64,000 nucleotides of DNA, from the NCBI GenBank assembly GCA_030704615.1, contig CM060732.1:31000001-31064000 (forward strand), given 5' to 3'. Shown piece after piece: positions 7,662 through 41,727 of this stretch (its first letter is position 1; each line of letters begins with the position of its first letter). The notes below the pieces were generated by a model, which made no database searches, was not told the DNA's origin, and was given only the letters and a program-made list of their open reading frames with translations. Origin of the DNA: Takakia lepidozioides (Eukaryota > Plantae > Bryophyta). Both the position numbers and the translations under genes were made by a program.

Positions 7662-8015
7662 TGTCATGGTTAACTAGAATTACCTACTTCTAGTTAACTA
7701 GGATATTTTGGATATTCATATTTGTATTTTGTGTGTTGGGACTTCATTTGGTCTCACATGCCAAGTGAGGTGTCAAACCTCACTTGGGACATGGGGATGG
7801 GTTTTCCCCTTGTGAGCGTTGAGGAGGGCTTATCTTCTTGTAGTTGAGCCTCCATGAGCCTCTCCCACCTCCATAGCTCTAGGTATTAAGTGGGAGTGTG
7901 GTGAGGGCTTTGTAGGGTGGATTCCTTTAGCAAAGGTGCCCTTGGCTTGACTTAGTTTATGTGATTGAGTGGATTCATGAGTGAAGTGTTTCCCTTGTGT
8001 TCACTTTCATTATCA
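7662..8015 (+). repeat. LTR segment 'A', probable part of the 5' LTR of DNMT-Gypsy copy 1
   Basis: TGTCATGGTTAACTAG...CACTTTCATTATCA recurs at 29714-30066 with only about 8 substitutions counted by eye. Confidence 0.8.
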
Positions 8016-8785: not shown

Positions 8786-9020
8786 TAGACAGCCAGTCAC
8801 AGCCCGTCACAGTCTATCACAGCTTCGCACAGCCAATCACAGCCCGTCACAGTCTATCACAGCTTCGCACAGCCAGTCACAGCTCGGCACAGCTTCGCAC
8901 AGCCAGTCACAGCCCGACACAGCTTCGCACAGCCAGTCACAGCCTGACACAGCTTTACACAGCCAGTCACAGCTCAGCACAGTCATAGCTCGACACAGCT
9001 TGACACAACCTGTCACAGCG
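8786..9020 (+). repeat. ~10-bp CACAG-core tandem array
   Basis: Repeated cacagccagt/cacagcttcg units; a related array lies at 12947-13085. Confidence 0.9.
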
Positions 9021-10238: not shown

Positions 10239-10429
10239 AGATATGAAAGACATGGGACATGAGTGATGAAAGTGAAGCTAGACTCCAGAGATATTCAGCA
10301 AAGAGGGAAAGTTATCTGAAAGCTAATTACCCATATCTTTGGGAGAAATGAATAGACATAGGGGAATCATCTGGACCTCTCACACCGTTAAGATCAAAGA
10401 GTACATCACCCATACCGGAAGAACTAGAG

Positions 10430-12875: not shown

Positions 12876-12946
12876 GTGATACCAACGGAGTATGGAGCAC
12901 TTGTCGCTAAGCCGAGCGTGTATGACCAGGGCGGGAAGTACAAGTG

Positions 12947-13085
12947 CCACACAGCCTATCACAGCCCATCACAGTGTCACACAGCCTATCACAACCCATC
13001 ACAGTATCACACAGCCTATCACAGTTCACCACAATCTGACACAGCCTGTCACAGCCCAACACAGTCCATGCGGGTTACACAGTCC
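12947..13085 (+). repeat. ~10-bp CACAG-core tandem array
   Basis: cacagcctat/cacagcccat units. Confidence 0.85.
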
Positions 13086-13560
13086 ATAGGGTCAGTGACA
13101 GATGGACGCGGGTTAACGTCAGAAAAGTGGCCGTCAAGTGAAAGAGAAGTTTGGAAGTCAAACTCGGAGAATGTGCCACGCGGACAGAGGGAAGTCGGAG
13201 GCATGTCTAAAAACGAACACGTGGCCACTAGGGCAAAGCACACCGCTGTGCATATATTGCAAAAGTGGGTATCATCATGCAAGAGGACAAATCGGGCCGT
13301 CAAAGTACCTACCCGGTACATCAGCCAAAACTATTTGTGGGCCCATTAATGCATTCAGGGCAGGGGTAACGGAACCCTTTCCGAGTACAGAAAAGATGGA
13401 CTTTTGCCACATGTGCTGTCCTACTGGACATTCCAGGTGGGAATGTCCACGGTGGGGGGTAGAATTAAGAAGTTTATTAAGCAGGCAACAGCCAATCAAG
13501 AGCAAGAATTTCATGCAGGTGGTTCTCTCCAAGAAATAAGAACAAGAAATTGGAAGAGTT

Positions 13561-16500: not shown

Positions 16501-18050
16501 CCCATGTTCCATCTACACAATTGGCAGTTTTGAGGGAGGAAGTCAGGAAGGAGTTTGAGACTAGACTTGCCACCGAGTGTGCAAATAAGGTGGATGTGGA
16601 GGCCAACCTCAAGTTGCAAAAAGAATTGGAGGACACAAAGGCTGCCTTGCAGATGGCTGAGGGGAATTTGATTGAAGCAGGTCTCGAGGAAGAGAAGTTG
16701 CATGAAGCACATAAACAACAGTTATACCAGTTGCAGGTGAAGCATGAGGGCAAGTTGCAGGAAGTGAACGTGCTACATACAGAGTTGGAGGCAGTTCATG
16801 AGAGAATAACCATACAGTGTGCCACACTAACAACTGCTCTGGAGCAAACTGCATTAGAAGTTAACAGACAAGGGGAGAGATGTATGATGGCAGAAGCTGA
16901 GATAATAGAGCAAGGGAAACTCATTGTTGATTTGAAGGCTACACTCTGTCGCAATGAGAATACTTTCCAATAGTACAGTAAGGTTGAGGCTGACCAGGAG
17001 AGGTACATCCTGGAGTTGCAGCAAACACTCATGGTCAATAGAAATAAACTTTCTGTGGCTAACAAGGCTTGGAAGGAAGCCAATAATCTGGTTGCTGCCT
17101 ATGCGGGCCTGGTTGAACCTCATGCAAAGCGCATGGAGGCTTTACAACAACAGTTAGATGTGTACAGACTCAAGGAGGAGCAGACTCTCAGGGGTGCCAC
17201 ACAGGACTTGGTGGATAATCACCTTATGCAGGTATGGTTAGCACAAGGGCCGGTAGAAGGAAAAGCACCAAGGAAGCTCACCCAGGGAGAGATGAATGAT
17301 CTCAGATTGCAGGTGCAGAACATTGCCACAACTATTATTGACAATGTCTATAGTAGGATAACGGAGTTACATGAGGATGTGGAAGGCCTGCAGACTCAAG
17401 TGGATGACCTGAGTTCAAATATTGACAAGAGAGTCTTTGTTCCTGAGGAGCAGCTGATGGCTACTTATTTGCATGCCAGGACTCTAATTTTTCAGTCTTC
17501 TTCGCAAGGGGTGCAGGAGATGCCAGTGGTAGAAGGGCCAGTGGTGCCAATACCACAACAGGTGTCTGTGCAGGTAATTGACCCTATTGCTACTACAGCA
17601 AAACCACAGCCTGAGGTATGGGGGGATGCTGCTTTTAACCCACCTAGGACTCCTGCTGCACGGGAGTATAGTCGGGCTATGATTATGCCCTTCAACCAAA
17701 TTCCCATTGTGCTGGATTTGGCTTGGAAGAAGATGCAAAGGTTATGATGCAGAAGGATTCCCAACTTTGTTCCTGGTTTAATTTGGCTTGGAACAACTTG
17801 GCAATGGAGAAATTAGGCCTTGATGATATTTTCTATAAGGGACATGAAGCCTGGAAATACTTACACTGTTCCAAAGTCATTGGCACACCTCTCACCTATA
17901 CGACTAAGGAGTTCAGAGCATTCACTCATTTTGCTTGCACGCGCTTACAACAAGTAGTACAGTTTAAGCTTCCAGACATGGTGGGACAACATTGTATGCC
18001 ACGCAGGATTCCGGAGAAGCCACTTAAAGTTCGTCCGTTAAAACACCTAA
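13561..18050 (+). pseudogene. Retrotransposon 3' accessory ORF(s) with long coiled-coil region, fragmented
   Basis: Consecutive frames 13561-14327, ~15580-16255, 16083-16973, 17016-17747 and 17723-18050; heptad-rich E/L/Q region; interrupted by a ~1.2 kb insertion. Confidence 0.5.
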
Positions 18051-18464
18051 GGGTTGCCAAAGGAGGTACAAGCTTGATTTTGAGTTCCAATGAGAAATTG
18101 AGCTTGTTGTGTGGCCTGTGCATTGCTAGTTGAGTTGGAGACAAACTTGAGTAGCTTAAGGTGAAGAAGATCAAGGGAATTTGCCTTGGTACCCCATAGA
18201 ATTCATGGATGCTTGAGGGGATTAAGAATAGAGCCCCAAGGAGCACAAACCCTAGCTTGGTAAGGCTAAACCTCAAGGAAATAGAGGGGGAAGTGGCTAA
18301 AGCCTAGGGGAAAATGGCTAAACCCTGGGGGGAAATGAACTACTCTATGAGGGGGAAATGGCTATTCCTAAGGGGAATACAAGGGGAATACGTATAGGCC
18401 CAGGGGAATACTCGGGGAGTATTATGGCATATTCTTGGGAATATTCTTAGGGAACTTTGGGAAC

Positions 18465-18830
18465 CTATTGGGAACTTGGGAACGCATTGGGAACATGGTG
18501 ATATAGGAAGAGTCTTTGGAGAACTGTTTGGGGTCCTTGGAGGACCATTGGGAGTCTTTGGAGGACTGTTTGGAGGAGCATTGGGAGTCTTTGGAGGACT
18601 ATTTGGAAGATCATTGGGAGTCCTTGGAGGACTGTTTGGGGTCCTTGGAGGACCATTTGGAGGACCATTGGGAGTCCTTGGAGGACTATTTGGAGGACCA
18701 TTGGGAGTCTTTGGAGGACTATTTGGAAGATCATTGGGAGTCCTTGGAGGACTGTTTGGGGTCCTTGGAGGACCATTTGGAGGACCATTTGGAGTTCTTA
18801 GGAGGACTATTTGGGGTCCTTGGAGGCCAA
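18465..18830 (+). repeat. GGAGGAC-based minisatellite with higher-order duplication
   Basis: ggaggactattt/ggaggaccattg/ggagtccttgga units; block 18601-18665 is repeated at 18721-18785. Confidence 0.9.
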
Positions 18831-19614
18831 TATTTGGCGAGCTTGAGGAGTCTTTGGCGACTTGTGTGAGGGACTATTGGGGTCCTCGAGGGCTAAGTTT
18901 TGGCAAGCTTGGGGTCTTGGTGTACTCTTTTGGAGTCCCATCGTGCAAGGATTGGGAGCCTTAGTGAGATTGTTTGAGAGACATATTCTTGAGGGCTCAT
19001 GGAGAGTTATTTGAGAGACCCTTGAAAGGTAGTCTTGTCTATTGTTCAAGTAAGAGAGTGTGGAGATAGGGTAGTGGGATGAGAGCATGCTGTGATAGGA
19101 ATTGCTTTAGTCTCTCTTCTTTGTAGTCTTCCACCCTCTCTGTAGGCCAAAACCTTTCCGTAGGTGGAGGCAAGAATCAGTCCGGGTTTGGGCTGGGGTG
19201 TCATTGTAGGAGCGACACTGTGGAGTGTTTTTGGTGTGGGGGAGTTGTTGTCTTGATTTTCTTGTGTTTGGGTCCTCTCCACACCTGCATGCTTGATTGT
19301 GCGCCATGTTAGCTTTGTATGGGCGCTTGTTTTCATAGGAGGTTGGTCCGGATTTGATCACCGGCCAATCCTAGAGCGTGCTGTCGGTGGTGAGGCTGGG
19401 GTGATGACCAGTCAGACCATCATTGTTTCTCTTATGGTGAGGCTGGGTTGATGACCAGCAGACCATATGAGTGCTTGCGGTGGATATAGGTGTAGGTTTA
19501 TATTACGAACCTAGTAGTCTAAGTCATAAGCTGCAACAGGTCCTCTACCCGGTTACCTTGTGGAAAGGGGGATTAGAGACAGGTTTACAACAGGTGTGGT
19601 TGTGAGTTTTCATC

Positions 19615-21000
19615 ACGGAGGTGCCACCAGTTGCTGAGGAGAGTGCCGGTACGAGCACCAGCGATACTAGTGGGTATACAAGACGAGGTGTGCGGTTTAG
19701 GCCACCTTCACCTTCAGTGTCTTCTGAGGAAGGTTCAGACTCGGAGTCAGGAGGATTCTCGCTGAGGATGCAAGTCATTTCCGTGCCATTGTTGTGGGAC
19801 ACGATGGAGGAGATGTATGGAGCTACCAAGGGGCCACGTAGGTACTCTGGAGTTGTGGGCACCATCGAGCTTGATGACTTCATACAAGAGTTTGACAGTT
19901 GGTGTGATTTGCAGCAGATGCGCAATCCACAACTGTTTACGCCTTTTATGGCGTGGAAGGGGCTATTTCAGCACCTTGAGGGGCCGCCCATGGATGACTA
20001 CCATGAGTTTAGGCGGGGACATGAGGTGGAAATTGAGGAATGGCGAGTGTATTGGTCACCTCACTATGTCTCCATCACTAGAGGCACAAGGGCAGTGGTG
20101 ACACCGGCAGCTACACCGGCAGCTTCTGCAAGCAGCAGTGGGACGTCAAGTGGAACAGGAGCTGGGAAGTCCACCCAAGCTCCTGCTGCAGCACCAACAC
20201 CCGTGTCAGCCTTTAACCCAGTTGTGGAGTTCTTCGAGGAGTTAAGGAGAAACTACCAGGGGATAAGGACGGAGAAATTGTGGAGTTTGCAAGAGTTCCA
20301 ACGAAAGCCTGCAGAGAGTTGAAGGGAGGCTTACACGCGCATGAGGCGCTTGATAAACGTAACCCAAGGGGTTACAGAAGCTCAGGAAGTCCAATTTTGG
20401 TATGGGATATTGGACAAAGAACTGAGGAGAAGGGTGCAGGATGCAACTCTCTTACAAGTGGCCCAACCCACCTTAGCAAACGTGTTTTTGCAGGCAGAGC
20501 GGATAGAGCTCAATATGGTGGAGGAGCGAGTGGTCATGGTGGGGTTTGGTAAGGAGACACAATGAAGTAGGGCTCTTAGCCAACAACAACCACTACCCCA
20601 ACGTGCTCAAGGCAACAAGGGGGCTCAGGCGAAGCCCAGGGAAGGGCTGAGAGGATTTCAATTGCAGAGGTCACTTCCTTCATTCTCAAGCCAACAACAG
20701 TCGGGTGTGACATGTTGGGATTGTGGAGGACCCCATGTTAAGAGAGATTGCCCGGAGAGAGGCAAAGGGCCGGCACAGGCACAGCCTACACAACTATAGT
20801 GTGGGCATTGTAGCAAGTATGGGCATGAAAAGGTCCATTGTTATGACTTGCATCCTGAGCTACGGCCAGGCCAGTTCCAAGGGAACAATGGTGGCCGAGG
20901 ATGAGGCAATGTAGTCCAGAGAGGTAGAGGAGGCAGAGGTCGTGGTGGAGGTCGTAACCAAAACCAAGGAGCACAGGGTCACGGTCAAGGTCATGACCAA
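19615..21000 (+). pseudogene. gag: gag, copy 1
   Basis: DDFIQEFDSWCD...FQHLEGPP; knuckles CWDCGGPHVKRDC and CGHCSKYGHEKVHC (first Cys preceded by a stop). Several in-frame stops. Homologous to 41727-40400 (-). Confidence 0.85.
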
Positions 21001-21003
21001 GGC

Positions 21004-22520
21004 ATGGTAGATAGGCTTGCCCAGCTAGAGCAACATCTTGCTACCATGGCCACTACTCATGTTACGCCAGCTCCAAGGCCTGAGGTTCAAGCCCCACCTG
21101 CACAACCTCCTATGCCTAGGGAAGACCAGATTGGTATAGGCTTCATGTGTGGAGCCGCACTTACACATGTGGACTCTGCAGCTGCTGTCACTCGAGCAGC
21201 AATGCGTGTTCCTGAGCCAAGAGGAGCGGATGTGGATTTTGATCCACAAAGAGGGGAAGCAAGTTGGCAGACAAGGCTTCCACAGTCTTTCACATTGGCT
21301 GAGACAGTGCCAACTATGCCATCGATGGCACCCGCTCGCCCAAGTGTATCAGAGGTAGAGCCACGAGTGCCACTGGGGAGAGTTGGTATGGCTCGGAAAA
21401 TGCCAGTGGGTGGTACTGCAAAGCAAGGTACAACCAGTACACTGTTGGGGGCGGCTACGGCAATTTTCCAAGCTCCATTGTTTTCTTCCACGACAATTGC
21501 AATGCCGGGGATGCGGCCAGCTGCGGTGTTTCGACTGGCAGCTGCACTCTGTGAGAGTGGTGATGCATCGGCACTATCTGCGGGGATATCGGATCAGGTG
21601 CAGTGCATGGATGCCCTGGATTCAAGGGTGAAGACAGCCACAGCTGCGCCATGGCAAGCGGCAGCTACAAGCTTGCAAGAGTTGCCACCTAGACTAGCCA
21701 TTGAGCGTAGTATGGTGACTCCTGGGGTAGTCCTAGTGGACAATCATGATGGTGTGTTTCAGTTGGGTGGCCCAGCCGGGAGGAGGTATAGGCCACTGCG
21801 GGTTTTGTTGGACTCGGGAGCACAGCCATTGATGTTGGGGAGAGCAGCAATTGCAGGCTTGGGCCTTACAGAGGCGGATTTGGAGCCTTGCCCTTTCCAA
21901 ATTCAAACATCTTTGGGTGGTTTAGAGAAGGCACGAGGGATTACATGCCATGAGCTCTTCATTCGATTGCAGCCAGATCATCCTATAGATGGCTCTGTCA
22001 TGAGAGCTAAAGTCATTGTTACGGACGCGATGTCTTATGATGTGCTTGTTGGCGGGGCTGTGTTATACCCGATGGGCTTTACTTTGGACTTTTGGGAGGA
22101 AACGACATCCTATAGGCCGGAATGGCAGTCAGGGGATGGTCGACGTGCACTGCTCCCAGTGCGGTTTATTAGGAATGTAACGGTGGATCATAGGAACATG
22201 ATGCCCACATTGGCTGCATTCTCAGGGGTGGTGGCTTGGGGTGGTGAGCTCTTGGAGGGCAATAGCCATGCAGATGATAGGCCACCACCTGATGAGGACA
22301 AACAATTGGCATACAAGGCTGATTTGCTTCCTCATGTGCCTGTTCATATTCCACTGTGGGGTACAGTTGGGAATTTGCATCGAATAGCAGGCGAGTGTGT
22401 GCACCAAGCATGGCAGGAGGCCTATCCATTGGTGAGTGAGGGGAGTTCAGTGACATCACCTGGACCTCCTCAGTTAGTTCTTTTGGACACAGTGCCCATT
22501 ACCTGGCAACCACCTGACTC
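21004..22520 (+). CDS. Linker and aspartic protease, copy 1
   Basis: VLLDSGAQP active-site motif at ~21802-21828; YDVLVG downstream; same frame as gag. Confidence 0.85.
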
Positions 22521-22524
22521 AGGG

Positions 22525-23110
22525 ATTTGTTTGCTAGACCTGTTTGGAGGCATGAGCATTGGGCTTGCAGGAGTGTTGCAAGCTAGGATTAAAGTACAAA
22601 AGTACTTGTATGTGTATTTCTATGCGCCACGTTGCCTTGCTCACACACCAGTACCCTGAGTTGCTGCCTGATGCAGCAGCGGTGGGATCACGCGCGCATC
22701 GACCTCGATTGTGGTGGACCAATCTTGCACCACCAGAGCTGCTCAAGATAGCATATCATTCCATTCAACGGCCACCCAATCTCACGGTTGAGGGCATTTT
22801 GGACCAAAGGAGGCAACCACAGAGGGTGCGACATGATGACCGTCCACCTCTAGCGGTGGTCAATCGAGTGGGGCAGCCACGTACAGCCTTGCCTATGCTC
22901 ATGAGCTTTCCCTCGTCTCATGCTTTTCGAGATATCCTGGGTTGATTTGGGACAGTGTGCTACAAACAATTGGTGGAGCCCAATGCGGATGAGCGCGAGC
23001 GGGCAATGGGGTTTGCCACGGGCACTACATCTGTGCTAGCTTTGTCAGAGGCATCACGACGCCAGGTGTTGGGTCAGGCAATGGATCTAAATTGCTTGAC
23101 ATGGATAATT
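22525..23110 (+). pseudogene. C5 cytosine DNA methyltransferase domain, catalytic core deleted
   Basis: Motif I LLDLFGGMSIG, VIII DAAAVGSRAHRPRLWWTN, IX ERERAMGF and X RRQVLGQAM are present. PC and ENV motifs are missing relative to copy 2. Confidence 0.85.
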
Positions 23111-24698
23111 GGCTTGTGCATGGCTGAGCAACGGAGATTGCAAGCATTGATGGCTACTTCTGCACTTCCATTGGATATTGCACCATCTATGCCAACCGGG
23201 ACGGTGGAGGCAGTGAGTGGGGGCGAGCACAGGATCATGGGGTGCAAACACCCATGGCAGATGTGGGATGAGATGCGGAAAGAGAGAGTCATTGGATCTC
23301 TCAAGCAGCAATATGAGGAGTGGGGAGAGCCATATACTGAGGATCAGTTAGAGGCCAAGGTGGCCAATGTTTTTGAAGAGGTTGAGAATGTTTCTTGCTC
23401 AGAGGATGTTCTCAAGGTGGCTATGGCGGAGCAAGTGGAGGCTACGCCACAGTCAGATTGGGCGGACAAGGCCCAAGAGGTTGCTATCTAGCAACCAAAG
23501 GATTCGTCTCCTACCTCCACGCCTGGTGTACCCAAGGTTGCAGTCACTAAGGACAATTGGGAACCAGATGTTGGACCTACAGTCACCGGAGGAGAGAGAC
23601 GGAGGATCCAGCGATTTCTAAGGGCTTATAGAAATTGCTTTGCCTTCGGTTTGATGGATTTGGGGAGTTTGAAGGGTCAGGAGATTCGTATTGATTTGGC
23701 AAGTGACACGCCAATCTTTCGAAGGCCATACCGGTATAGTGACATGGAGAGGTCATTGATCCAGTCACGGACTATGGAGTTGTTTGAAGCTGGATTGGTG
23801 GAGTTGTCAGGCGGGGAGTATGCCTCGGCAACGGTGATGCCAGCTAAGAAGGATATCTATGGCAATTGGACAGAAAGAAGGATGTGTGGGGACTATCGTC
23901 TTGTGAACCGTCAGACTAAGTCCGATAGATATGCCATGCCAACTCCAGAGGAGATCTTTGATGCCATTGGGCATGCAAAGGTGTTTAGCACATTGGACTT
24001 GCGATCCGGTTACCACCAATTGCCAATCAAAGAGGCTGACAAGCAAAAGACAACATTCTGGGGGATTGACCAACATGGGAAGGATTGCTTGTACCAATGG
24101 TGGTTCTTACCGTTTGGGCTGAAGAATGCTCCTGCAGAGTTTCAGAGGGTCATGGATAGGATTCTCACGGGGCTAGACTTCACCCGGTGCTACATTGATG
24201 AAATCATCGTCTTTAGTGCTACGGTTGAGGAGCATGAAAGACACCTTCAGGTGGTGTTTGAGCGCTTGAGAGCGCACGGGTTGAAATTGCACCCTGGGAA
24301 GTGCAAGTTCTTCCATAACCAGATTGAGTATCTGGGCCACATGATATACCCTGGAGGATTGGGTGTTGAAAAGACGAAGGTGGAGGCCATTGCACGCATT
24401 CCACGCCCCATAGATGTTAGTAGAGTTCGTGCTTTCATGGGGTTGGCGGTTTGTCAAGGGATTTAGCAGCATTGCAAAGGCTCTTACCAAGTTGACCAAG
24501 GTGGGTCAGGAGTGGCAGTGGGAGGAGGAACATGAGGAAGCCTTTGAGGAACTCAAGGCTCGATTGACTTCTGCACCTATTCTGAGGCGGCCTATTCGGG
24601 GGCGGCCTTTCCAGCTACATACGGATTGGAGTATGCTGGGAATTGGAGCAGTGCTCACACAGGTGGATAACGAGGGAAGAGAGTTCGTAGTGGCATAT

Positions 24699-27414
24699 CA
24701 CTAGAAGAGAAACCGGCTTTTTCCACTGTTTTTTCCATATTTTTTGTTGTGGAATCAGCCGCAGTCCACACCTGCCGTGGGTGTAAGGAACGACTAGTGC
24801 TTTCGGACACCTCGTGCATGGCCTGGCTCTCGGGTGGCCCTGTAGAAAAGTCCACGGGAGGCTTTTTCCATGGGTGGGCTTTTTTCACGGGCTGCATGGT
24901 GACATGGCCGATGGCATAGCTGACATGGCAGAGTGTGAAAAAAGGCCAGTGTGGCATATTTCACGGCGGATTTCACACCTTGAACAAGCCACTATATGAC
25001 ACGTGTCATATTTCACACCTTCGACAAGTCACTATGCAATACGTGTTCGTTCTTGTGTGGTGGTACACATTAATTAATTAATTAATTGCTTTCCAATATT
25101 AAGTTTGAATATTAATGGATTAATTTATTGTTATTATTATTATTATTATTATTATAGGAAAAATGGACAGTGGCCTGGATGAGAACATTATTAAATAACA
25201 AAATATTGAAATTATGTTTTTAGAAATTATATTTATTCGCTCAGCCATAGTGTTGAACACTCCCTTTGCATCCTCGATGCACCCACATTTTGCATACATG
25301 TCCACCAGGGTATTGTTCAAAATGACATTTGGTACAATTCCAGCTTTGATGATATCCCCATGCATCTCTTTGCCCTTCTCCAGGGCTGCCAGGGCTGCCA
25401 GGCCTGCAATGTATACAAACATGATGTGGCCGGGCTGGACCCCTTCCCCCATCAGTTGCTCATAGGTCTCCAAAGCCTCCATCCCATGTCCCTGCTGTGC
25501 ATACCCTGCAAGCATCGCACTCCACGACACCACATCTCGTTCAGCCATAGTGTTGAACACTCCCTTTGCATCCTCGATGCACCCACATTTTGCATACATG
25601 TCCACCAGGGTATTGTTCAAAATGACATTTGGTACAATTCCAGCTCTGAAGGTGTCACCATGGAGCTGCCAAGGCAGTGTTTCGAATGACATTAGGTACA
25701 ATTCCAGCTTTGATAATATCCCCATGCACCTCTTTGCCCTTCTCCAGGGCTGCCAGGCCTGCAATGCATACAAACATGATGTGGCCGGGCTGGACCCCTT
25801 CCCCCATCATTTGCTCATAGGTCTCCAAGGCCTCCATCCCACGTCCCTGCAAGCATCGCACTCCACGACACCACATCTCGTTCAGCCATAGTGTTGAACA
25901 CTCCCTTTGCATCCTCGATGCACCCACATTTTGCATACATGTCCACTAGGGTATTGTTCAGAATGACATTTGGTACAATTCCAGCTCTGAAGATGTCACC
26001 ACGGACCTCCTTCCCCTTTTCCAGAGCTGCCACGGCAGTGTTTAGAATGACATTAGGTACAATTCCAGCTTTGATGATATCCCCATGCACCTCTTTGCCC
26101 TTCTCAAGGGTTGCCAGGCTTGCACAAGCATTGCAATGCACACAAACATGATGTGAGAGGGCAAAACAGGTTGAAATAGGTCAAAGAAGAAGATGCCCTC
26201 ACCACATTGTCCTTGAGGTTGTGTCATGACTTGACCGACCATCAACCCAAAAGGACCTCTTGTGTGTGCTGCTTGTGTCTGTAGTCAGGTAATGTCGGAT
26301 TGGTCTGTGAGATCGAACCACCACGGTGTAGCTGAGTAGGCAGAGATTGAAACACAGCCTGCTGTGACCAAGCTAACTCTCCCAAGAATGGCAAGCTCGC
26401 AAGAATGTTGCGAGCTTCTCCTCGTCTCATCTCCTCCTCCTCTCCTCCTTCCTGCATCATTTGCTCGACGCCTCCATCCCACGCCCCTGCATATCCTGCG
26501 ATCATCGCGTTCCATCCCTCAGCTACATGGTGTGGCGCATGGAGACAAAAAAAAACGCCAAGTCCCTGCCCTCCTCTGTGTTCACAATTACCCTAATGGG
26601 CAACCTTATTAGCAACTTTTTGACTTTTTAACCTTTTGCACTTTGATTCATTCTAGGTCAGAGGCTAAAGTCCTGCTACCAGACTTGTCTAGAAAACCAA
26701 AACACCACGTAGACAAACATTTGATAATGGTAATAAAATATATTACCATTGGGCTGGTTTGAACACTTGTTAGTAAATTTAGGTTAGGATTTTTAGGTTA
26801 GGATTTTTTCGAAATATTCTGGTTTTTTCTTTGATGTGTGAGATGACAAAGTCCAAGCATGTCACATAAACAAGGAGTTCAACGTAAGGATGATGCAAGT
26901 GATTTGTGGCAAAAAATGTAAATCATGCCTATGCCTATTTGTCCTAGTTGTGTCATAGGTTGCAACGGAACGGGGCCACTTTTGAATGCGATCCCCATGC
27001 TCATTTCACCAAGGGCATTATAGACTTCATAATGGAGAGATTGAAAATGGGGTGTATTCTTCACTTGCTAGTAGCCCATCGTGCAGATTTCTAAACATGA
27101 ACATGAAGTTCATAATCATTTTCCAAGGGCATCATTCTCAAACTCCCCATACACCACAATCAGTGGAAATAATTGTATGTTCCTATTTCACACAGGTGTG
27201 TAACATGCCATGTAAACTAAGCCAACCCCTGCCACGCTCATGGCTGTTTTCACACCGTTCTTGCCTGGGGTGTGGACCACATGTGAGACACCCCACAGTT
27301 AGGGCATATTTAGACCCACACCTTGGCTCAGTGTATAGACCCGTGATATAAGCCGTGGAATGTGCCAGGTGTGAGATGGCAGAGCCGTGGAAAAAGCCGG
27401 TTTCTCTTCTAGTG
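24699..27414. mobile_element. Non-autonomous CACTA element carrying PPR fragments
   Basis: Perfect 28-bp TIR CACTAGAAGAGAAACCGGCTTTTTCCAC at both ends. 3-bp TSD TAT at 24696-24698 and 27415-27417. Removing the element restores RNaseH ...VVAYASRSNN. Confidence 0.97.
25230..26150 (-). pseudogene. PLS-class pentatricopeptide repeat gene fragment
   Basis: NTLVDMYAKCGCIEDAKGVFNTMAERDVVSWSAMLAGYAQQGHGMEAL repeated with a ~300-bp period; frameshifted. Confidence 0.92.
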
Positions 27415-29613
27415 TATGCCAGCCGCTCGAACAATGATGCCGAGGCGAAGTATAGCTCATATGAAGGGGAGTGACTAGCTACGGTATGGGCAGTGGCACA
27501 TTTTAGATGCTACCTCTATGGCAACCTCTTCACCCTTGTCACGGATCACCAACCATTGAAGTGGTTGATGGAGTTAGACAAGCTTACAGGGAAGCTTGCA
27601 CGATGGGCACTTATGCTTCAAGAGTACGACTTCCAGGTGGTGCATCGAGCCGGTATAGTCAATCGGGATGCAGATGGGTTGAGTCGTAATCCATGCATGA
27701 GCGAGCATGATGATACTGGAGCTTGGTGGCATGGTGAGACGGATGAGGAGATGGTGCCAGGATAGCGCGCATCTACCTTTTTTGTGCATCCTAGCAATGA
27801 GAGCTCAAGCTGGTCCATCCCATAGCATTGGTCAAGTAGATGGTGTGCATGATGATCCGGAGATCAGTGAGGAGCTTGGTGGTGCTAAGGATATGCATGA
27901 AAATGCAGCAGTGTTGGCCTACCTTCGTACAGGAGAGACAACAGCCAGTGTGACTGCTAAGGAGAGAGATCGGATCCTACAACGAGCCAAGAGGTTCAAG
28001 TGGGAAGGGACTCACCTACTCCGGGAATGGGAGGATAGACGAGTGAGGATTGTGCCTCATCCAACACAACGAGCGCGATTGGTACGCCATGCCCATGAGG
28101 AGTTGGGACATTTTGGGGTGCGGCGCACTCATAGTTTGCTGCAAGGGCAGTATTGGTGGCGGGGCATGCACACGGATGTGCAACAGTTAGTGACAAGGTG
28201 CATGGTGTGTGATAGAGTGCGGGCTTCTTTCAACGCCCCTACTCCACAATTGCATCATTTACCCATTATGGGTTTGGGCTATCGTTGGAGTCTTGACTTC
28301 GCAGGCCCATTGCCACTGACGATTCGCCATAACAAGTATGTGCTGGTGATGGTGGAACACTTCTCCAAATGGATTGAACTAGTGGCATTGCCTGACAAGG
28401 CAAGTGAGGGGGCTGCATATGCATTCTTAGTCGAGTGCTTAGCCATTTTGGTGCTCCAGCCGAGGTACTCACGGACCAGGGGAGAGAATTCTTGGGGGAG
28501 TTTCAGGCTTTGTGTGAGCAAGCCTTGATAGATCACCGCACTACTTCTCGGGATCATCCCGAGGCTGATGGCTTGGCGGAGAGAGTTGTTCAGACAGTCA
28601 AGAGAGGTTTGCGCAAGTACGGTTTGCGCAAGTACGGTTTGCAGAAGGGACACCTAGGAGATTGGGACCTTCAACTGCCTTGGCTAGCTATGGGCTATAG
28701 GTTCAGCAAACAAGCTTCACTTGCCTCCTTCTCACTTTACTTTCTTCTCTTCGGCCGAGAGCCGGATTTGCCTGCATCTATTCGCAGGGAGGCTGCAATA
28801 GTTCTCAATTTTGATGATCCGGATGTGTGGATACAAGCATGTGCCCAGCGGGCACAGTTGTTCAAGAGAGTCATGTCTATGGGTTTTGAGAACCTTGCTA
28901 TTGCCCAACACCGAGACACATTGAGGTACGCCACTATACGTGGAGGGGGATATCGGCCAAGTGTTCGGCGTTTCCACCTTGGGGACTATGTGTATCTGCA
29001 GCAGACAGCGCCTACGACCTTGGATGTCACAGCAGGACGTGTGATTCTAAGGGTCAGGGAGGTGTTGCCTTCAGGAGTGTTGATTCTGGAAGGTCGAGAC
29101 GGCATAGTATGGAAGGACCATGTGCGCAATTGTGCGCCATGTCACTTTCCACATGTAGATGGGAGGATAGATCCCAACCTTGCAGTGGTACCTGTAGGAT
29201 TGCGTTGCATGCCATGTGGATATGCTGGTGGCGCCACAACCATGTTGGTGTGTGACAAATGCTCAAGGGGGTGGCACATGGGATGCTTGACACAGCCACT
29301 TGAGGAGGTCCCTATTGGAGAATGGTTGTGTCCACGATGCCTTGGACAGAGGTAGTGGGCATGACAATGGTGAGGCGGACAAGTTATCCAAGGTCTAGCT
29401 AGTGAGGCTTCAATGCCATGGATACTCAACTAAATATCATGGATTGCATGAAGGCGACTAACGATGGGGCTACGTTTGCACCCGGCCTCTTGATCTATCG
29501 ACTTCAGGTGTTGGGACTTGTGCAATTGAAGACCAAGCGATGATCTTATTGAGATGGATACTTGTCAGCTATTCGGTGTTAGAGGGACCTAAGCACCAGC
29601 TAAGGGGGGCAAT

Positions 29614-30151
29614 TGTGGCATAGCTTTCTAAGATTATGTGCTTAGAATGTATGGTGGACAACGATGTATGTTGTGGCACGATGCTTAGATGCACGACAGC
29701 TGTCATGGTTTTAGTCATGGTTAACTAGAATTACCTACTTCTAGTTAACTAGGATATTTTGGATATTCATATTTGTGTTTTGTGTGTTGGGACTTCATTT
29801 GGTCTCACATGGCAAGTGAGGTGTCAAACCTCACTTGGGACATGGGGATGGGTTTTCCCCTTGTGAGTGTTGAGGAGGGCTCATCTTCTTGTAGTTGAGC
29901 CTCCATGAGCCTCTCCCACCTCCATAGCTCTAGGTATTGAGTGGGAGTGTGGTGAGGGCTTTGTAGGGTGGATTCCTTTAGCAAAGGTGCCATTGGCTTG
30001 ACTTAGTTTATGTGATTGAGTGGATTCATGAGTGGAGTGTTTCCATTGTGTTCACTTTCATTATCATCGTGGCATAGCTTTCTAGGATTGTGTGCTAGAA
30101 TGTATGGTGGACAGCGATGTATGTTGTGGCACGATGCTTAGGTGCACGACA
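29614..30151 (+). repeat. 3' LTR region of copy 1: block B (29614-29698), segment A (29701-30066), block B again (30069-30151)
   Basis: Starts TGTGGCA just after the PPT AAGGGGGGC; direct repeats are visible in the sequence. Confidence 0.8.
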
Positions 30152-33425: not shown

Positions 33426-34724
33426 ATTTGTGAGAGGTGGATATGTCATGGCGTCGAAGCGTTTGCGATACACTAGATCCGTATGTGATATAGTGAATAT
33501 GGGAACTCCTCCGCACAATTTGCATGCAGGCGGTGGTAGAGCATATCGACTCCAGGGGGGTTCACTATATATATTTTTTTCATATCACGTGCGTACAAAT
33601 GTATATTTATACTAGGCTATATTCTTCAATTTTTGCATTTTTTTTCTACCCTATATTTAGGTAATGATTGTAAAACCCTTTGCTTTCTAACACCATATTT
33701 TTTTTTATAAATTTTTTTGCAACAATTAATTAGACCATATTTTAAATTGTCCTTTTAAATGATTGCAAATTCTCAAAGCATGTACACAAACAAGTACATT
33801 CCATATAACATAAGTCAAATGCCGGACCCAAGAAAAAGTTTAATTTTCATTAGTCACGAACTCATTTAAAGCCGCAACATCACTTGGATCTAAAGAGTAC
33901 AAGTTTTGAGATGGTTCAAATGTCATAGTCATTGTTGAGATTATAGTATCAACATCAATCCACTACGTATCACTGGAATTATATTTCAACTTTAGGTGAC
34001 TTCTACTTGATCTCATCCTCATGGATTACAGCTGGATGTAATATGAGAAACTTCACAAAGATGCATACATTGTAGATAAAACCCTTTATTATATTAATTT
34101 TTTAAGTTAAACTCTGGATTTTTCGTGACATTTGTTTTTAAAAAACTGGGTGAAATGATATTGCCCTACCAAATTTTCTAAGTAATTTTTTTCATAAATT
34201 TACCTCAAAAAAAAAAAATTACACCCTATATTTGTTCTCACGTGGTTTTGAAAATACGGGGAGTGACTCTCCTAAGATCGACTCTCTCCGGTTGCCAAGA
34301 AAACCGTTTTTGGGGCTTGAGACTGTCCCAAGTCTGACCTTTCTTGAAATGAGTTCATGTTTTCACCTAAACAAGAACCAACCATCTATTTTCCCTGTCG
34401 TGCGCATACGTATCGCTACACAACTACATCGCTATCCAAACTACACCACACATATATGGACAATAAAGTAGTCTGCCACAATCGCCCCCCTAGCTGGTGG
34501 ATAGGTCCCTCTAACTCCAGATAGCTACAAGATGTAATAGCCACAGCCGTACTAAGTCCTCTATCACTGTCCCTATTGTACTCAAACTCTATAGACCAAG
34601 AGGCCGGGTACAAGAGTAGCCCCATCGTTAGTTGCCGTCTTGCAATCTGTGAACTTGAGCCAGGATCTCGTGTGTTCAAGGTCTCATAGTAGCTTGGCCT
34701 TGCATTTCTTGTTAGCCTTCCATG

Positions 34725-37700
34725 TAACCAATCCCCATCAGGAACCATCTCAAGAGGTGGAGTCAAGCATCTCATATGCCAACCTCTAGAGCATCGATCA
34801 CACACCAGCATGGTGGCTGCCCCTCTAGCAGACCCACACAACATGCACCTCAAACTTGCAGATACCACTGCCAGGTTTGGGTCAATCCTGCCATCGACAT
34901 TTGGAAGGTGACATGGCGCACAATTATGCACATGGTCCTTCCAAGTTATGCCATCCCGACCCTCCAAGATCAAGATGCGTGAGGGCAAGACCTCTCGAAC
35001 CCTCAAAATAACACGTCCAAGGTCGTAGGAGCAGTCTGCTGCAGATAAACATAGTCACCAGGGTTGAATCTCCGAACCCCAGGACAATAGCCCCCACCAC
35101 GTATGGTAGCATACCTCAATGTATCACGATGTTGTGCAATGGCAAGGTTCTCGAAAGCCATGGGCATGACTTTCTTGAACAACTCTGTACGCTGATCACA
35201 TGCACGTGCCCACACGTCCGGATCGTCAAGGTTAAGAACTGTAGCAGCTTCTCTACAAATGGATGTAGGCAAATCCGGCTCTCGGCCAAAGAGAAGAAAG
35301 TATGGTGAGAAAGAGGCAAGTGATGCTTGCTTACTGAACCTGTAGCCCATGGCTAACCAGGGTAACTGAAGGTCCCAATCTCCTAGGTGTCCCTTCTGCA
35401 AGCCATACTTGCGCAAACCCCTCTTTACTGTCTGAACAACCCTCTCTGCCAAGCCATCGGCCTCAGGATGATCCTGAGAAGTGGTGCGGTGGTCTACCAA
35501 GGCCTGGTCACACAAAGCCTGAAACTCCCCCAAGAACTCTCTCCCTTGGTCCGTGAGTACCTCAGCTGGAGCACCGAATCGGCTAAGTACACAATCCAAG
35601 AATGCATCACTAGCCTTATCAGGCAATGGAACCAACTCGATCCACTTGGAGAAGTGCTCCACCATCACCAACACGTACTTGTTGTGGCACATGGTCAGTG
35701 GCAACGGCCCTGCGAAGTCAAGACTCCACTTGTAGCCCAATCCCATGATCGAAAGAGGGTGCAATTGTGGAGTAGGGGCGTTGAATGAAGCACGCACCTT
35801 GTCACACACCATGCACCTAGCCACAAATTGTTGCACCTCTGTATGCATACCACGCCACCAATATTGCCCCTGCAGTAGACTATGAGTGCGTCGCACCCCA
35901 AAATGCCCCAACTCCTCATGGGCATGCCGCACTAACCGTGCCCGTTGTCTTGGGTGAGGCACAATCCTCACTCGACCATCCTCCCACACTCGGAGCAGGT
36001 GTGTCCCCTCCCACTTGAACCTCTTGGCTCGTTGTAGGATCCGATCCCTCTCTTTGGCAGTCACAGTGGTTGCCGTGTCTCCAGTGCGGAGGTAGTCCAA
36101 CACAGCTGAATCCTCATGTATATCTTTGGCGCCACCTTGCTCATTGCTGGCCTCAGGGTCCTCAGACACTTGATCTACAGTCATCCCTGTTGCAGGTCCA
36201 ACCTGGCCTTCCGCTGCCAAGATACACAGAAATGCAGATGCACGCCATCTGGGCACCATCTCCTCGTCCGTCTCACCATGCCACCGAGCTCCAGTGTCAT
36301 CCTGCTGGCTCGTGCATGGATTGCGACTCAACCCATCTGCATCCCGATTGACCAAACCCGGTCGATGCACAACCAGAAAGTCGTACTCTTGAAGGATGAG
36401 TGCCCACCATGCAAGCTTCCCCGTAAGCTTGTCTAACTCCATCAACCACTTGAGTGGTTGGTGATCCGTGACAAGGGTGAAGAGATTGTCGTATAGATAG
36501 CACCTAAAGTGTGCCACGGCCCACTCTGCAGCTAAGCATTCTCCCTCATATGAGCTATACTTAGACTCTGCAGCGTTGTTCGAGCGGCTAGCATAAGCCA
36601 CTACGAACTCTCTTCCCTCATCATCCACCTGTGTGAGCACCGCTCCAAGCCCCAACATGCTCCAATCTGTATGCAGCTGAAAAGGACGCCCCCTGATAGG
36701 TCGTCTCAAGATGGGCGCCGAGGTCAACCTCGCCTTGAGCTCTTGAAAAGCTTGTTCTTGCTCATCTTCCCACTGCCACTCTTGGACCACCTTGGTCAGT
36801 TTGGTTAGAGCCTTTGCAATGGCACTAAATCCCTTAACAAACCATCTATAATTGTTTGCTAACCCCATGAAAGCTCGAACTCGACTCACATCCGTGGGGC
36901 GTGGAATCTGTGCAATGGACTCTACCTTAGTCTGCTGTACCCCCAATCCTCCAGGATATATCATGTGACCCAGATACTCAATTTGGTTGTGGAAAAACTT
37001 GCACTTCCCCGGATGTAACTTCAATCCGTGCGCCCTCAAGCGCTCAAATACCACCTGAAGGTGTCTCTCATGCTCCTCCACCGTAGCACTAATGATGATG
37101 TCATCTATGTAGCACCGAGCAAACTCCACCCCTGCTAGAATCCTGTCCATGACTCTCTGAAAACTCTGCAGGAGCGTTCTTAAGCCCAAATGGTAAGAAT
37201 ATAGGCAATCCTTCCCGTGCTCATTGATCCCCCAGAATGCCGTCTTCTGCTTATCCGCCTCCTTGATCGGCAATTGGTGATATCTGGATCGTAAATCCAA
37301 AGTGCTAAAGACCTTGGCATGCCCAATGGCATCAAAGATCTCCTCTGGTGTTGGCATGGCATACCTATCGGACTTGGTCTGACGATTTACAGGCCGGTAA
37401 TCACCGCACATATGTCTCTCCGTCCAATTGCCATAGACATCCTTCTTGGCTGGCATCACTGTGGCTGAAACATACTCTCCCCCAGATAGCTCCACCAAAC
37501 CAGCCTCCCAAAGGTCCTGAGTTCTCATCTGAATCAAGGACCTCTTCATGTCATTGTATCTATAGGGTCTCCGAAAGATTGGCGTGTCAGTAGCCAATTC
37601 AATGCGAATCTCTTGACCCTTCAGTGCTCCTAAGTCCTTCAAACTGAAGGCAAAGCAATTCCTGTAAGCCCTCAAGAACCGCCGTATACGTCGTCTCTCT

Positions 37701-37801
37701 CCTCCGGTGACTATAGGTCCAATATCAGGCTCCCAGTTATCCTCCGTAACTGCAACCTTGAGTCCAGCAGGCTTAGAGGTAGAAGACGTGTCCCGTGGTT
37801 G
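34725..37801 (-). pseudogene. pol: pol (RT-RNaseH-integrase-PHD), copy 2
   Basis: 890-aa ORF 35003-37675 with YIDD, TDWS, HHCC and DDE motifs. Frameshifted tail ...CMLCGSARGAATMLVCDRCSRGWHMRC (PHD with last Cys pair lost). Confidence 0.95.
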
Positions 37802-38099
37802 CTATGCTGCAACCTCTTGAGCAGTGACCACTGCCTCCTCTGTCAGTGACAATGTCTCATCCTGCCCCATCATCCCATCCTTGAGGACCTCCTCAACCCG
37901 AGAAAAATCCCCAACCTGATCCATCATCGCCGCCTTGGCTGCCAACTCCTTCTGAACCTCGAGCACCTCCCACGTGTGCCATGGATGCGGCCTGCACCTC
38001 GTGGTTGTCACCTATTCGCCCCCACTCGCTGCCTGTACCGTCTCGGTAGGTAGGGAGACCATAAAGGGAAGTGTACTCTGTACTCTGCGCTGCTCAGCC

Positions 38100-39071
38100 A
38101 TAGCCAAGCTGATAATCCAGGTCAAGCAATTGAGATCCATTGCTTGCCCCAACACCTGACGACATGATGCCTCAGAAAGAGATGGCACCGCCGTGGTACC
38201 AGTGGTAAAACCCATCGCCCACTTGCGCTCGTCAACATTGGGCTCCACTAATTGCTGCAACTGGCTATCCCACAAGAGGCCAGGTCCACCATCCCGGAAA
38301 GCATGAGATCCTGGAAAGCTGAGTAGTGTAGGCAATGCGGCTCGTGGGTGACCCACCCTATTGACCACTGCCAAAGGTGCTCGGTCATTGTGTCTCACAC
38401 GCTGAGACTGTCTCCCTATGTCCAAAATGCTATCCACCGTCAGGTGTGGTGGCCGCTGCACCCCATCAAATGCACGCTTGAGCAGTGCAGGTGGCATCAA
38501 GTTGGTCCACCATAGTCGTGGGCGATGAGCCCGTGACCCCACTGCAGCTGCGTCCAACAACACTGCTAATCCAAGCCAAGACCGCACTTGATGCACACTG
38601 GCCATCACCTTGGCCCGAGAATCACCCATCAATGGCACATTCTCCAAAATATATGCCGGAGAGTCTGTCTGCTGAAGCTGTAAATAACGTAGGACCCTCA
38701 ACATCTCCCAAAACAGGCGTGACCTTGAGTCTTGTAACCCATTGTCATGCCCGGCTGATGAATGCCCTTCGCAGGGCCAACCTGCAACTACCAAATGAAT
38801 AGGGTCAACCCGCTCCAAATCATGCGCCCCAAGCAAAGAGATGTCTGCTGGCAATGCTGGTTGGTATCCACGAACTGCAGACACTGGCAACAAATCAGGG
38901 TACTGCTGCACCAACGGAGCAACATGGCGCAGTGAGACGCGTCGTGCGCAGTGAGACGTGTCGTGCAGTCTCATCCCTCTCCACATACAGGTAACGTCGA
39001 ACTTGTACACCTGCCTGCAACACTGCAGCCAATCCAGTGCTGATCCCGCCAAACAAGTCCAGAAGGCATAT
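38100..39071 (-). pseudogene. C5 cytosine DNA methyltransferase domain (DNMT3-like), all motifs present, one frameshift
   Basis: I LLDLFGGISTG; II RYLYVERD; IV LVVAGWPC (Cys codon 38771-38773); VI YILENVP; VIII LLDAAAVGSRAHRPRLWWTN; IX ERKWAMGF; X RQVLGQAM. Confidence 0.92.
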
Positions 39072-39185
39072 GCCTTCATCCGGGCACTGCCACACAAGAG
39101 GTGTGGCGTCCAATGGCGACAACTGAGATGGTTCTGGTGCAATCACCGCACTCTCCTCCTCTCCTGACGGTACGAAGGCCTCTAC

Positions 39186-40307
39186 CTAGGCTTGTTGCAC
39201 CCGTCTATCAGCAGCTTGCTGCAAATGCTTGCTCGTACCCCACAATGGAGTGTGAGCAACCATGGCAGGCAACTCCGCCGTACCATGCATGTCATCCTGC
39301 TCTGTTGGAGGTGGCACATCCTCTGCATGGGCATTGCCCTCCAGCAACTCTCCAGGCCAACTAACTGCAGCTGTGAAGGCTACTAGTGTTGGCATCTTGC
39401 CCCGCTGGGCAGCAGCAACACCCCCAATGACTGTCATAAGGAGTTGTACACGACGACCATCCCCTGACTGCCATCCAAGCCTGTAGGATGCTGAATCCTC
39501 CCAAAAATCCAGGGTGAAGCCCATGGGATATAACACTGTCCCACCAACGATGTCATCGTAAGAGACCACATCTGTCACAATGGCCTTGGCTCGCATCACT
39601 GAGCCATCTATAGGATGATCCGGCTGTAGTCTAATGGCCAACTCATGCCGTGTCATGCCCCGAGCCTGCTCTGATCCTCCCAGAGATGTCTGTATCTGGA
39701 AAGAACAAGGCTCCATGTCCGCCTCCATGAGGCCCAAACCTGCAATAGCAGCTCTGCCCAACATCAGTGGCTGAGCTCCCGAGTCCAACAAGACCCACAG
39801 TGGCCGGTACCTCTTGCCTGCCGGTCCACTCAAAGAAAAAATGTCATCCTGGTTGTCTAACAAGACAACTCCAGGTGTCACCATGGCGCGCTCAAAGGCT
39901 GGCATAGCTGGCAGCTCCGTCAACCTGGCAACTGCAGCTTGCCATGGCGCAGCCGTGGCAGTCTTGACCCTCAAATCCGAGGATCCCTCTGCCACTACAC
40001 CCTCCACTAACTCCGCAGAAGATGAAGTGACCTCCCCACTCTCGGAGAGTGTTGCTGCTAGTCTGAACACTGCAGCTGGTCTTACCCCCGGCGTCGCAAT
40101 CATGGTTGCCGAGAATAGTGGGGCTTGACACACAGAGGTGGCTGCCCCCAACAATACACTGGCTGCACTAGTCTTGGCAGCAGGTGTCAGTGCTGCACGT
40201 GTAGCTCTCCCTAATGACACAATAACGGCCTTTGTATCTGTCGGACGAGAACTAGGTGTCATGGATGTCGTCGACACTGTCTCCCCCAAGATGAATGATT
40301 GAGGCAA
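39186..40307 (-). CDS. Linker and aspartic protease, copy 2
   Basis: VLLDSGAQP motif; colinear with 21004-22520. Confidence 0.85.
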   Translation of the reverse strand: MPQSFILGETVSTTSMTPSSRPTDTKAVIVSLGRATRAALTPAAKTSAASVLLGAATSVCQAPLFSATMIATPGVRPAAVFRLAATLSESGEVTSSSAELVEGVVAEGSSDLRVKTATAAPWQAAVARLTELPAMPAFERAMVTPGVVLLDNQDDIFSLSGPAGKRYRPLWVLLDSGAQPLMLGRAAIAGLGLMEADMEPCSFQIQTSLGGSEQARGMTRHELAIRLQPDHPIDGSVMRAKAIVTDVVSYDDIVGGTVLYPMGFTLDFWEDSASYRLGWQSGDGRRVQLLMTVIGGVAAAQRGKMPTLVAFTAAVSWPGELLEGNAHAEDVPPPTEQDDMHGTAELPAMVAHTPLWGTSKHLQQAADRRVQQA

Positions 40308-40399
40308 CCTAGCCTGACGGCTTGCCTCCCCATGCTATGGATCTAACTCCACCTCTGCACCTCGTGGCTCAGGAACTCGTGCTGCTCCTCGAGTGACGG

Positions 40400-41727
40400 C
40401 TGCAGCAGACTCCACCTGCACTAGTGGTAGTGCTGCCCCCACACATAAATCCCATGCCTCCCATGTCTCATCTGTCCTGGGCATCTCCATGCCCATACTT
40501 GCTACAATGCCCACACTGCAACTGTGCATGCAGTGCTTGTGCCGGCCTTTTGCCACTCTCTGGGTAATCTTTCTTGACATGGGGTCCTCCACATGTCCAA
40601 CATATCATCCCTGGTTGTTGTTGGCTTGCAAAAGATGCTACTGGCCTCTGCATCTGAGGTCCCATGTAAGCTCCATGGAATTTGGGTTGAGAAACCTTGC
40701 CCCCCTGACCACGCTATTGGGTAGTCCCTTGTGCCTGTTGGCTGGCAATTGCGCCTCGTGCAGGCATGTCCTTGTTAAATCCAATGGTAGCAACTCGCTC
40801 CTCCACCATGTTGAGCTCAATCCGCTCAGCCAGCAGAAACACATATGCTAATGTGGGTTGGGCTGCTTCTAACAGGGTTGCATCCCGCACCCTTCTCCTG
40901 AGCTCCTTGTCCAAAATTCCATACCAGAACTAGATTGCCTGAGCTTCAGTAACCCCTTGGGTCACATTTATCAAGCGCCTCATACGAGTGTAGGCCTCTC
41001 ACAAGCTCTCACTGGATTTGTGCTGGAAGTCTTGCAAACTTCGCAGCTTCTCTGTCCGTACACCTTGCTAGTTCCTCCGCAACTCCTGGAAGAACTCCAC
41101 CACTGGGTTGAATCTAGGCACATGTGTTGTTGTCGTAGCAGGAGGAGTAGTAGCACCTTTTGAACTCATACCACCTGCAGAAGTACCGGCACTACTTGTT
41201 CCACTACTAGTGCTGGCAGTGGGAGATATTGGTGCTGATGCAGCTACTGGTCGCGTCGTGCCTCGAGTAATGGAGACGTAGTTAGGTGACCAATACATCC
41301 TCCACTCCTCAATCTCTGCTTCATGTCCTCGCCTGAACTCGTGGTAATCATCGATAGGTGGGCCTTCCAAATGCTGGAACAGTCCCTTCCACGCCATGAA
41401 TGGGGTGAACAGCTGTGGATTGCGCATCTGCTGCAAATCACACTAGCTGTCGAACTCCTGGATAAAGTCATCCGGCTCGATTGTGCCCATAGCTCCAGAG
41501 TACCTACGAGGCCCCTTGGTAGCTCCATACATCTCCTCCATGTCGTCCCACAACAATGGCGAATGAAACTGCACACCTGTTGATGAAGCCTCCGAGTCTG
41601 TGTCTGACTCTGCACTAGTTAAGGATGGAGGTGAAGGTGGTCTGAAACGAACACCTCGTCTGGTGAACCCACTCTCACTGCTACTGCCTGTAGCTGTACT
41701 CCCCTCAAAACCCTTGGGTAACTCCGT
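40400..41727 (-). pseudogene. gag: gag, copy 2
   Basis: TRRGVRFRPPSP, DDFIQEFDS, CWTCGGPH, CGHCSKYGH; in-frame stops. Confidence 0.85.

Follow-up and report, generated by a model that had tools for sequence, protein, structure and literature searches.

A conserved in-frame UAG between methyltransferase and reverse transcriptase as a probable readthrough signal in bryophyte Gypsy-DNMT3 retrotransposons

Two inverted Gypsy-DNMT3 copies in the window

The window (the whole 64,000-nucleotide stretch of Takakia lepidozioides DNA analysed here) holds two related retrotransposons in inverted orientation, whose shared blocks are 70–79% identical (Table 1). By translation and Pfam matches, both are of the Gypsy-DNMT3 type, with the order Gag-PR-DNMT-linker-stop-RT-RH-IN-PHD; the Gypsy domain order PR-RT-RH-IN is present, and the RT open reading frames that follow the TAG (23492–24466 in copy 1, 37801–35003 in copy 2) match RVT_1. 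The C5 methyltransferase domain (Pfam DNA_methylase) is intronless and DNMT3-like, and is broken in the window copies. Terminal repeats in the DIRS-like arrangement A-coding-B-A-B occur in copy 1, where the 5' A is tentative, and in the metagenome relatives L040 and L067; they were not seen in copy 2, L062, or L070. Both window copies are dead, with private stops, frameshifts, and deletions, plus a CACTA insertion in copy 1, so that any signal they carry is a relic of an active ancestor.

Table 1. Positions of the elements and their parts in the window
Feature	Positions	Strand	Remarks
Copy 1 terminal repeat A, 5' copy	7663..8015	+	Tentative; 97.7% to 29714-30066
Copy 1 Gag, protease, DNMT start	19606..22659	+	Zinc knuckle; DSG; single frame, private stops
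Copy 1 DNMT C-terminal part and linker	22655..23488	+	139-codon linker; internal deletion and frame change precede
Copy 1 in-frame TAG	23489..23491	+	Predicted readthrough codon at DNMT linker/RT boundary
Copy 1 hexamer CAA CCA	23492..23497	+	Matches CAR YYA
Copy 1 RT-RH-IN-PHD	23492..29352	+	Frameshifted; CACTA insertion splits RNase H
Copy 1 predicted long-range stem, 5' arm	23500..23518	+	+12 to +30 from first base of stop
Copy 1 predicted stem, 3' arm	23588..23609	+	+100 to +121, over GGERR codons
Copy 1 3' repeats	29612..30151	+	B 29612-29698, A 29714-30066, B 30066-30151
Copy 2 RT-RH-IN and PHD	34701..37801	-	932-codon open frame; PHD in shifted frame
Copy 2 predicted stem, 3' arm	37688..37700	-	
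Copy 2 predicted stem, 5' arm	37775..37789	-	Weaker than copy 1
Copy 2 hexamer CAA CCA	37796..37801	-	
Copy 2 in-frame TAG	37802..37804	-	Predicted readthrough codon
Copy 2 Gag-PR-DNMT and linker	37805..41646	-	115-codon linker; stops, deletion, frameshifts

Other sequence surrounds and interrupts these elements. The CACTA-type insertion in the copy 1 RNase H (24699–27414) has CACTA...TAGTG ends, a TAT target duplication, and internal repeats, with no transposase seen in it; a CACTA/En-Spm transposase region with Transposase_21, DUF4218, and DUF4216 lies at 44552–47392 on the minus strand. The tentative 5' repeat A of copy 1 and its gag are separated by ∼11 kb of other sequence (8016–19140), probably nested insertions, which include 10-nt ACAG tandem arrays at 8749–9012 and 12911–13074 flanking open reading frames with a weak zinc-knuckle match (11598–12875), further open reading frames with no Pfam match (15062–17747), and an array of 33-nt period (18483–18830). 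Short dispersed repeats occur at 53089–53185/56561–56658 (97% identical) and 660–767/55337–55444 (81% identical).

A first-pass annotation of the window had described a TAG CAA CCA shared by the two copies at the boundary of the methyltransferase region and RT, and this description holds in full. The bases read GCT ATC TAG CAA CCA in copy 1 and GCA GCA TAG CAA CCA in copy 2; the two TAGs fall in one alignment column, and each is in frame both with the upstream GQAMDL motif (at 23072 in copy 1), from which the linker is counted, and with the downstream RT reading frame. When the copies are compared over coding-frame segments, this TAG is the sole stop common to both, the remaining stops being private to one copy or lying in 5' or off-frame segments. 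Of 86 variants in contigs aligned to copy 2, none of the 40 listed falls in 37796–37804, and the 5-kb contig X7 differs from copy 2 at 21 positions, none of them among the nine bases. (A single contig, whose run was taken to be RNA by guesswork only, spans the copy 2 stop unspliced; it is not counted as evidence.) Because the copies are ∼80% identical around the TAG, a common stop could reflect descent; moreover, TAGCARYYA is not enriched in the 64-kb window (3 found versus 4.0 expected). With the motif not above chance, the window alone cannot decide, and the case rests on relatives.

Stop, frame, and hexamer in relatives

Relatives were sought by DNMT alignment, so that the stop had no part in the query, and of the 229 found the best 80, all metagenome loci, were kept; viral contigs were also searched, and no loci were found there. 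The junction was readable in 66 of the 80, the other 14 lacking it through a contig end, deletion, or insertion. The codon there is TAG in 45, TAA in 18, TAC in two, GAA in one, and CAG in none, i.e. a stop in 63/66, and all three sense codons stand in decayed copies. The two loci with TAC match at 95% over the whole 4.9 kb they have in common, carry many stops, and have the appearance of a single old insertion; L074, which has GAA, and the related TAA loci L065 and L066 are heavily decayed and were aligned by eye. Most of the readable loci (57/66) form one large family that groups with a Sphagnum protein; less six duplicates, it comprises 51 unique loci (35 TAG, 14 TAA, and 2 TAC), and decay was measured on 48 of the 57.

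Intact elements carry the stop too. In L062, 1369 open codons (Gag-PR-DNMT) lead to TAG CAG TTA, and 1047 more (RT-RH-IN-PHD) follow, a single stop in ∼2400 codons; Gag, protease, and DNMT run on uninterrupted by frameshift or stop, which leaves the junction as its only recoding site. Its methyltransferase has DNMT3A as best PDB match (E 7e-8), DNMT3A/B scoring best, with the PC, ENV, and RxR motifs aligned. L081, the sole match in the genome collection, is open for 1162 codons from the contig edge to TAG CAA TCA, and open again from RT to PHD, while L070 has 728 open codons before its stop and 1047 after. The ends of the L081 contig (CADCWO010000201.1) overlap, as in a circular assembly, and it is filed under a cyanobacterial metagenome-assembled genome; the likely explanation is a eukaryotic repeat binned in error, or a circular intermediate.

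These elements bear on decay, which the first-pass annotation had offered as the alternative: a CAG turned to TAG by 5mC deamination or, in another form, a dead fixed-stop lineage spread by helper elements. We regard this as very improbable and reject it on the strength of the intact elements and the lack of CAG. The window copies do carry several private stops, and C>T change in CAG context reaches 0.27 per site in decayed copies; yet at that rate most copies should still read CAG, and 0/66 do. The stop is present in elements without other lesion (L062 and L081), which keep TAG where young intact copies might have shown CAG or another sense codon, and behind it pol is open and conserved across 56–64% RT identity, as a frame under selection would be. 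The TAA copies of the large family are scattered among TAG copies on its tree, and their frequency (G>A at the stop in 14/51) is inside the background of TAG-context G sites (mean 0.19, range 0.02–0.40).

Some relatives were compared as proteins only. Full-length ORF1 proteins (1248–1331 aa) from Marchantia and from JGI/ENA contigs end 93–99 aa past GQAMDL, as does a Calypogeia protein, these ends being known from the proteins alone. Among 150 cluster representatives, likewise proteins with no DNA context, 60 end after the methyltransferase, a count given no weight here because many are fragments; the two closest (52% and 49% identity) extend 181 and 164 aa beyond it, and six are DNMT-RT fusions, at no more than 44% identity. 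A further architecture in the DNMT family (P0055–P0059 and P0117–P0265) places RT before DNMT in 39/150 representatives, and DNMT before integrase in 26 others of the 150.

Around the stop, frame and nucleotide pattern are kept while other features vary. The distance from GQAMDL to the stop, measurable in 9/10 elements, is 99, 115, 115, 130, 130, 133, 136, 139, or 147 codons, yet frame with both sides is always kept in these nine. UAG with CARYYA occurs in both window copies and in L048, L062, L069, L070, L072, and L081, as CAACCA (window copies and L048), CAGTTA (L062 and L069), or CAATCA (L070, L072, and L081); the encoded dipeptides differ (QP, QL, and QS), and the nucleotide pattern is constant. 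In-frame CAR-YYA pairs are rare in pol (3–4 of 1039 codon pairs), and L062, L070, and L081 have only 148/495 fourfold sites (30%) in common. The codon 5' of the stop is not conserved. L059 has a second stop at the junction (TAG TAG CCA), and L065, L066, and L074 are decayed, so the fit of these four to CARYYA is inferred. CARYYA, whose invariance the first-pass annotation had proposed to test, is kept with the TAG in the intact relatives L062 and L081 but not in the largest family, which has CAA CCC, a single mismatch (sixth base C in 49/51 unique loci), followed by an in-frame ATG at codon +3 (CAA CCC ATG). This family (L001–L079) combines its weaker hexamer and in-frame ATG with a strong predicted stem, and may rely on that stem or on reinitiation.

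The ATG raises the alternative that pol is translated separately, with its own start at an AUG downstream of the stop that is used through reinitiation or on transcripts of an internal promoter; Tca2 has a minor promoter at its junction (PMC2194720). An early in-frame Met is available in the large family (codon 3), in L059 and L069 (codon 5), and in L070 (codon 14). In the intact L062 and L081, however, no in-frame Met precedes codon 117, and copy 2 has its first at codon 85 and copy 1 at codon 55, all beyond or close to RRPY, a motif conserved at codon 79–80; a separate start also leaves CARYYA and the kept frame unexplained. We therefore consider a separate start unlikely as the general route to pol, although it may be a side route in the CAA CCC ATG family.

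UAG is read as Gln, or edited away in RNA, in fungi, organelles, and some green algae, and either might dispose of the stop here. Both leave CARYYA unexplained, the stop lies outside the predicted stem, and the 3/3 intact pol frames (1040 codons, 43–49 CAR each) have no other in-frame TAA or TAG; we give editing or a reassigned code hardly any credence. Frameshifting is rejected, the reading frames on both sides being one and the same.

We conclude instead that the conserved in-frame TAG is probably a site of programmed UAG readthrough that splits Gag-PR-DNMT from RT-RH-IN-PHD, a reading that accords with one long open frame on each side of the stop in intact relatives and with the fused relatives outside the clade, which have no stop. 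The hexamer is that of tobamovirus type I readthrough (PMC2754532 and PMC3159437), in which it is likewise a polymerase that depends on readthrough, the protein upstream being produced in excess; UAG CAR YYA is read at ∼6–10% in transgenic Arabidopsis, and Tyr is inserted in Nicotiana benthamiana (PMC2754532). Unlike in tobamoviruses, the host here is a retrotransposon, the 5' codon is unconserved, and one family has CAA CCC.

A predicted stem downstream of the stop

The first-pass annotation had no structural element at the junction, and we predict one, a long-range stem downstream of the stop. It begins ∼11–13 nt past the stop, with its 5' arm starting at ∼+12 to +16 (position +1 being the initial base of the TAG) and its 3' arm, formed by the codons for GGER or GAEAR, 70–100 nt beyond the 5' arm. 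The stem appears in 7/8 sequences folded as 120 nt from the stop (the exception being L069) and is held in 9/11 in a 300-nt context (exceptions L059 and L069). The arms differ between clades, as does their register, yet still pair within them, with predicted energies of −14 to −32 kcal/mol for own-clade arms versus −7 to −16 kcal/mol for cross-clade combinations. All 32 control probes score below the stem in 5/7 elements. Among 367 probes spread over 1.5 kb, the one at +13 ranks first in 3/7 elements, and in three more of the seven just 2, 8, and 13 probes equal or beat it. An 18-nt deletion in one family is located in the predicted loop. On the other side, within-clade covariation is not significant (44/500 shuffles) and no double change was found; the energy of the region against synonymous shuffles reaches ≤5 of 300 in only 4/11 sequences; window copy 2 and L069 show a weak stem; and one clade has arms of low complexity.

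In geometry the predicted stem (spacer ∼11–13 nt, loop ∼50–80 nt) is similar to those of alphaviruses, tobraviruses, and furoviruses, which have a spacer of ∼8–12 nt, at least 11 pairs with a bulge, and a long variable loop; theirs follow UGA C(GG), whereas the one predicted here follows UAG CARYYA (PMC3159437). That paper did not see extended stems behind tobamovirus-type CARYYA sites, benyviruses possibly apart; none was seen in tobamoviruses or pomoviruses, in contrast to the extended 3' stem predicted here.

Among retroelements, SIRE1 (a soybean Copia element), MuLV, and Tca2 likewise have reading frames parted by one in-frame stop (PMC2194720 and PMC2829016), at the pol/env or gag/pol boundary; here the stop follows an accessory enzyme and precedes RT, and protease lies upstream of it. 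Tca2 also advises caution, as it shows that flanking sequence does not always bring about readthrough of an in-frame stop between gag and pol, even where a structure is predicted (PMC2194720). The first-pass annotation had likened the site to a pol/env stop of Sireviruses, which is apt for SIRE1, an element however termed an atypical Sirevirus (PMC2829016). It had also called the position unusual for recoding; a break between PR and RT is in fact known from the Ogre Ty3/gypsy elements (PMC6317226), while the probable readthrough signal and the methyltransferase upstream of it are new.

The Ogre precedent brings in splicing. There, Gag-PR is likewise apart from RT-RH-IN, by a spliced intron of ∼274 bp (PMC6317226), where the window family has a single codon, and Ogre-like splicing could in principle remove the stop, with the AG of TAG as a possible acceptor and pol made from spliced RNA. 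TAG is a legal acceptor, and five gene models from Marchantia, Riccia, and Sphagnum bridge DNMT to RT over the stop; but each of the five makes the join at a place of its own, as would be expected of ab initio repairs, U is scarce in the 40 nt before the stop (15–33%), and copy 2 and L062 offer a rival CAG 5 nt before it. Splicing requires neither a conserved linker frame nor CARYYA, and both are observed. We judge splicing an improbable explanation and retain readthrough.

Origin of the stop and its proposed consequences

Annotated homologs exist in Calypogeia, Marchantia, Riccia, and Sphagnum, and metagenomes contain others. In RT, copy 1 and a Marchantia model have 74% identity, which by itself would point to a bryophyte host. 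Our midpoint-rooted RT tree has 35 rows (the two window copies, 18 loci, and 15 proteins; two rows are shortened), and its stop-bearing rows and bryophyte models form one clade (97/93), whose deepest lineages are at 56–64% RT identity. Outside it, DNMT is fused to RT in P0054, P0017, P0053 (a single ORF of 2703 aa), and P0051/P0052, the last pair from Klebsormidium nitens. The simplest reading of this tree would be that the stop was gained once in the clade; because its lineages share ancestry, they represent one origin and not many independent trials.

The nearest described element is KnitGypsy-Dnmt3 of K. nitens (PMC5890265), which has in common with the window family a DNMT3-like domain upstream of Gypsy RT-RH-IN and A-coding-B-A-B terminal repeats; K. 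nitens KFL_009030040 is a homolog. In KnitGypsy-Dnmt3, the methyltransferase is inside the Pol ORF with no stop before RT (PMC5890265; P0052), whereas the window family has the stop in its readthrough-type context. Since the stop parts DNMT from RT, the window elements are a variant and not plain members of KnitGypsy-Dnmt3, and the stop-bearing clade is present in bryophytes.

By the mechanism we propose, most ribosomes would terminate once the methyltransferase is complete, and a minority of them would read UAG by near-cognate decoding and continue into RT-RH-IN-PHD, with the predicted stem adding to the local hexamer signal. The readthrough signal would thereby set the Gag:Pol ratio, while protease and methyltransferase would be made at the level of Gag, and Gag-PR-DNMT in perhaps tenfold excess. 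The methyltransferase might then enter the particle within the Gag precursor and be released by the protease, and, once packaged, could methylate new cDNA. In avian retroviruses, protease is likewise on the Gag side of the frameshift. Methylation of cDNA has been proposed for a different DNMT3 element (PMC5890265). Taken as a whole, we offer the following scenario tentatively, as one that may well prove wrong in part: the bryophyte Gypsy-DNMT3 clade would have gained a two-part signal (CARYYA of the tobamovirus type with a long-range stem of the alphavirus type) that shifted the captured methyltransferase from the Pol to the Gag side, giving ∼10 times as much of it as of RT and integrase per particle, for bulk methylation of the cDNA or insertion site.

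The Gypsy-DNMT3 family and the CARYYA motif are each known already. We found no report of the two combined, of a site located behind an accessory enzyme, of the difference from fused relatives, or of the additional stem in the full-text literature searched, a body to which most subscription papers do not belong; the signal is absent from the relevant passages of PMC5890265, PMC6338049, PMC12344493, PMC3441728, PMC2829016, PMC5009743, and bioRxiv 10.64898/2026.05.21.726589.

Readthrough would explain some mis-annotation: gene models invent introns over the stop, and screens based on open reading frames see intact elements as broken. The models P0010, P0041–P0043, and P0047 (Riccia, Marchantia, and Sphagnum) skip the stop region and are likely annotation artefacts. 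A passage of a 2019 paper has such elements absent from land plants such as tracheophytes (PMC6338049), contrary to the homologs annotated in Marchantia, Riccia, Calypogeia, and Sphagnum; the claim may stem from the broken appearance of intact elements in such screens.

For plant Ty3/gypsy elements, the junction would represent a third route to the Gag:Pol ratio, beside frameshift and intron, and a natural case of CARYYA together with a (predicted) long-range stem. Why a retrotransposon should retain a DNA methyltransferase is described as an open question in PMC5890265. A conserved switch that puts the methyltransferase in the abundant product would imply that the enzyme is needed in quantity, and the fused and stop-bearing relatives offer matched natural comparisons.
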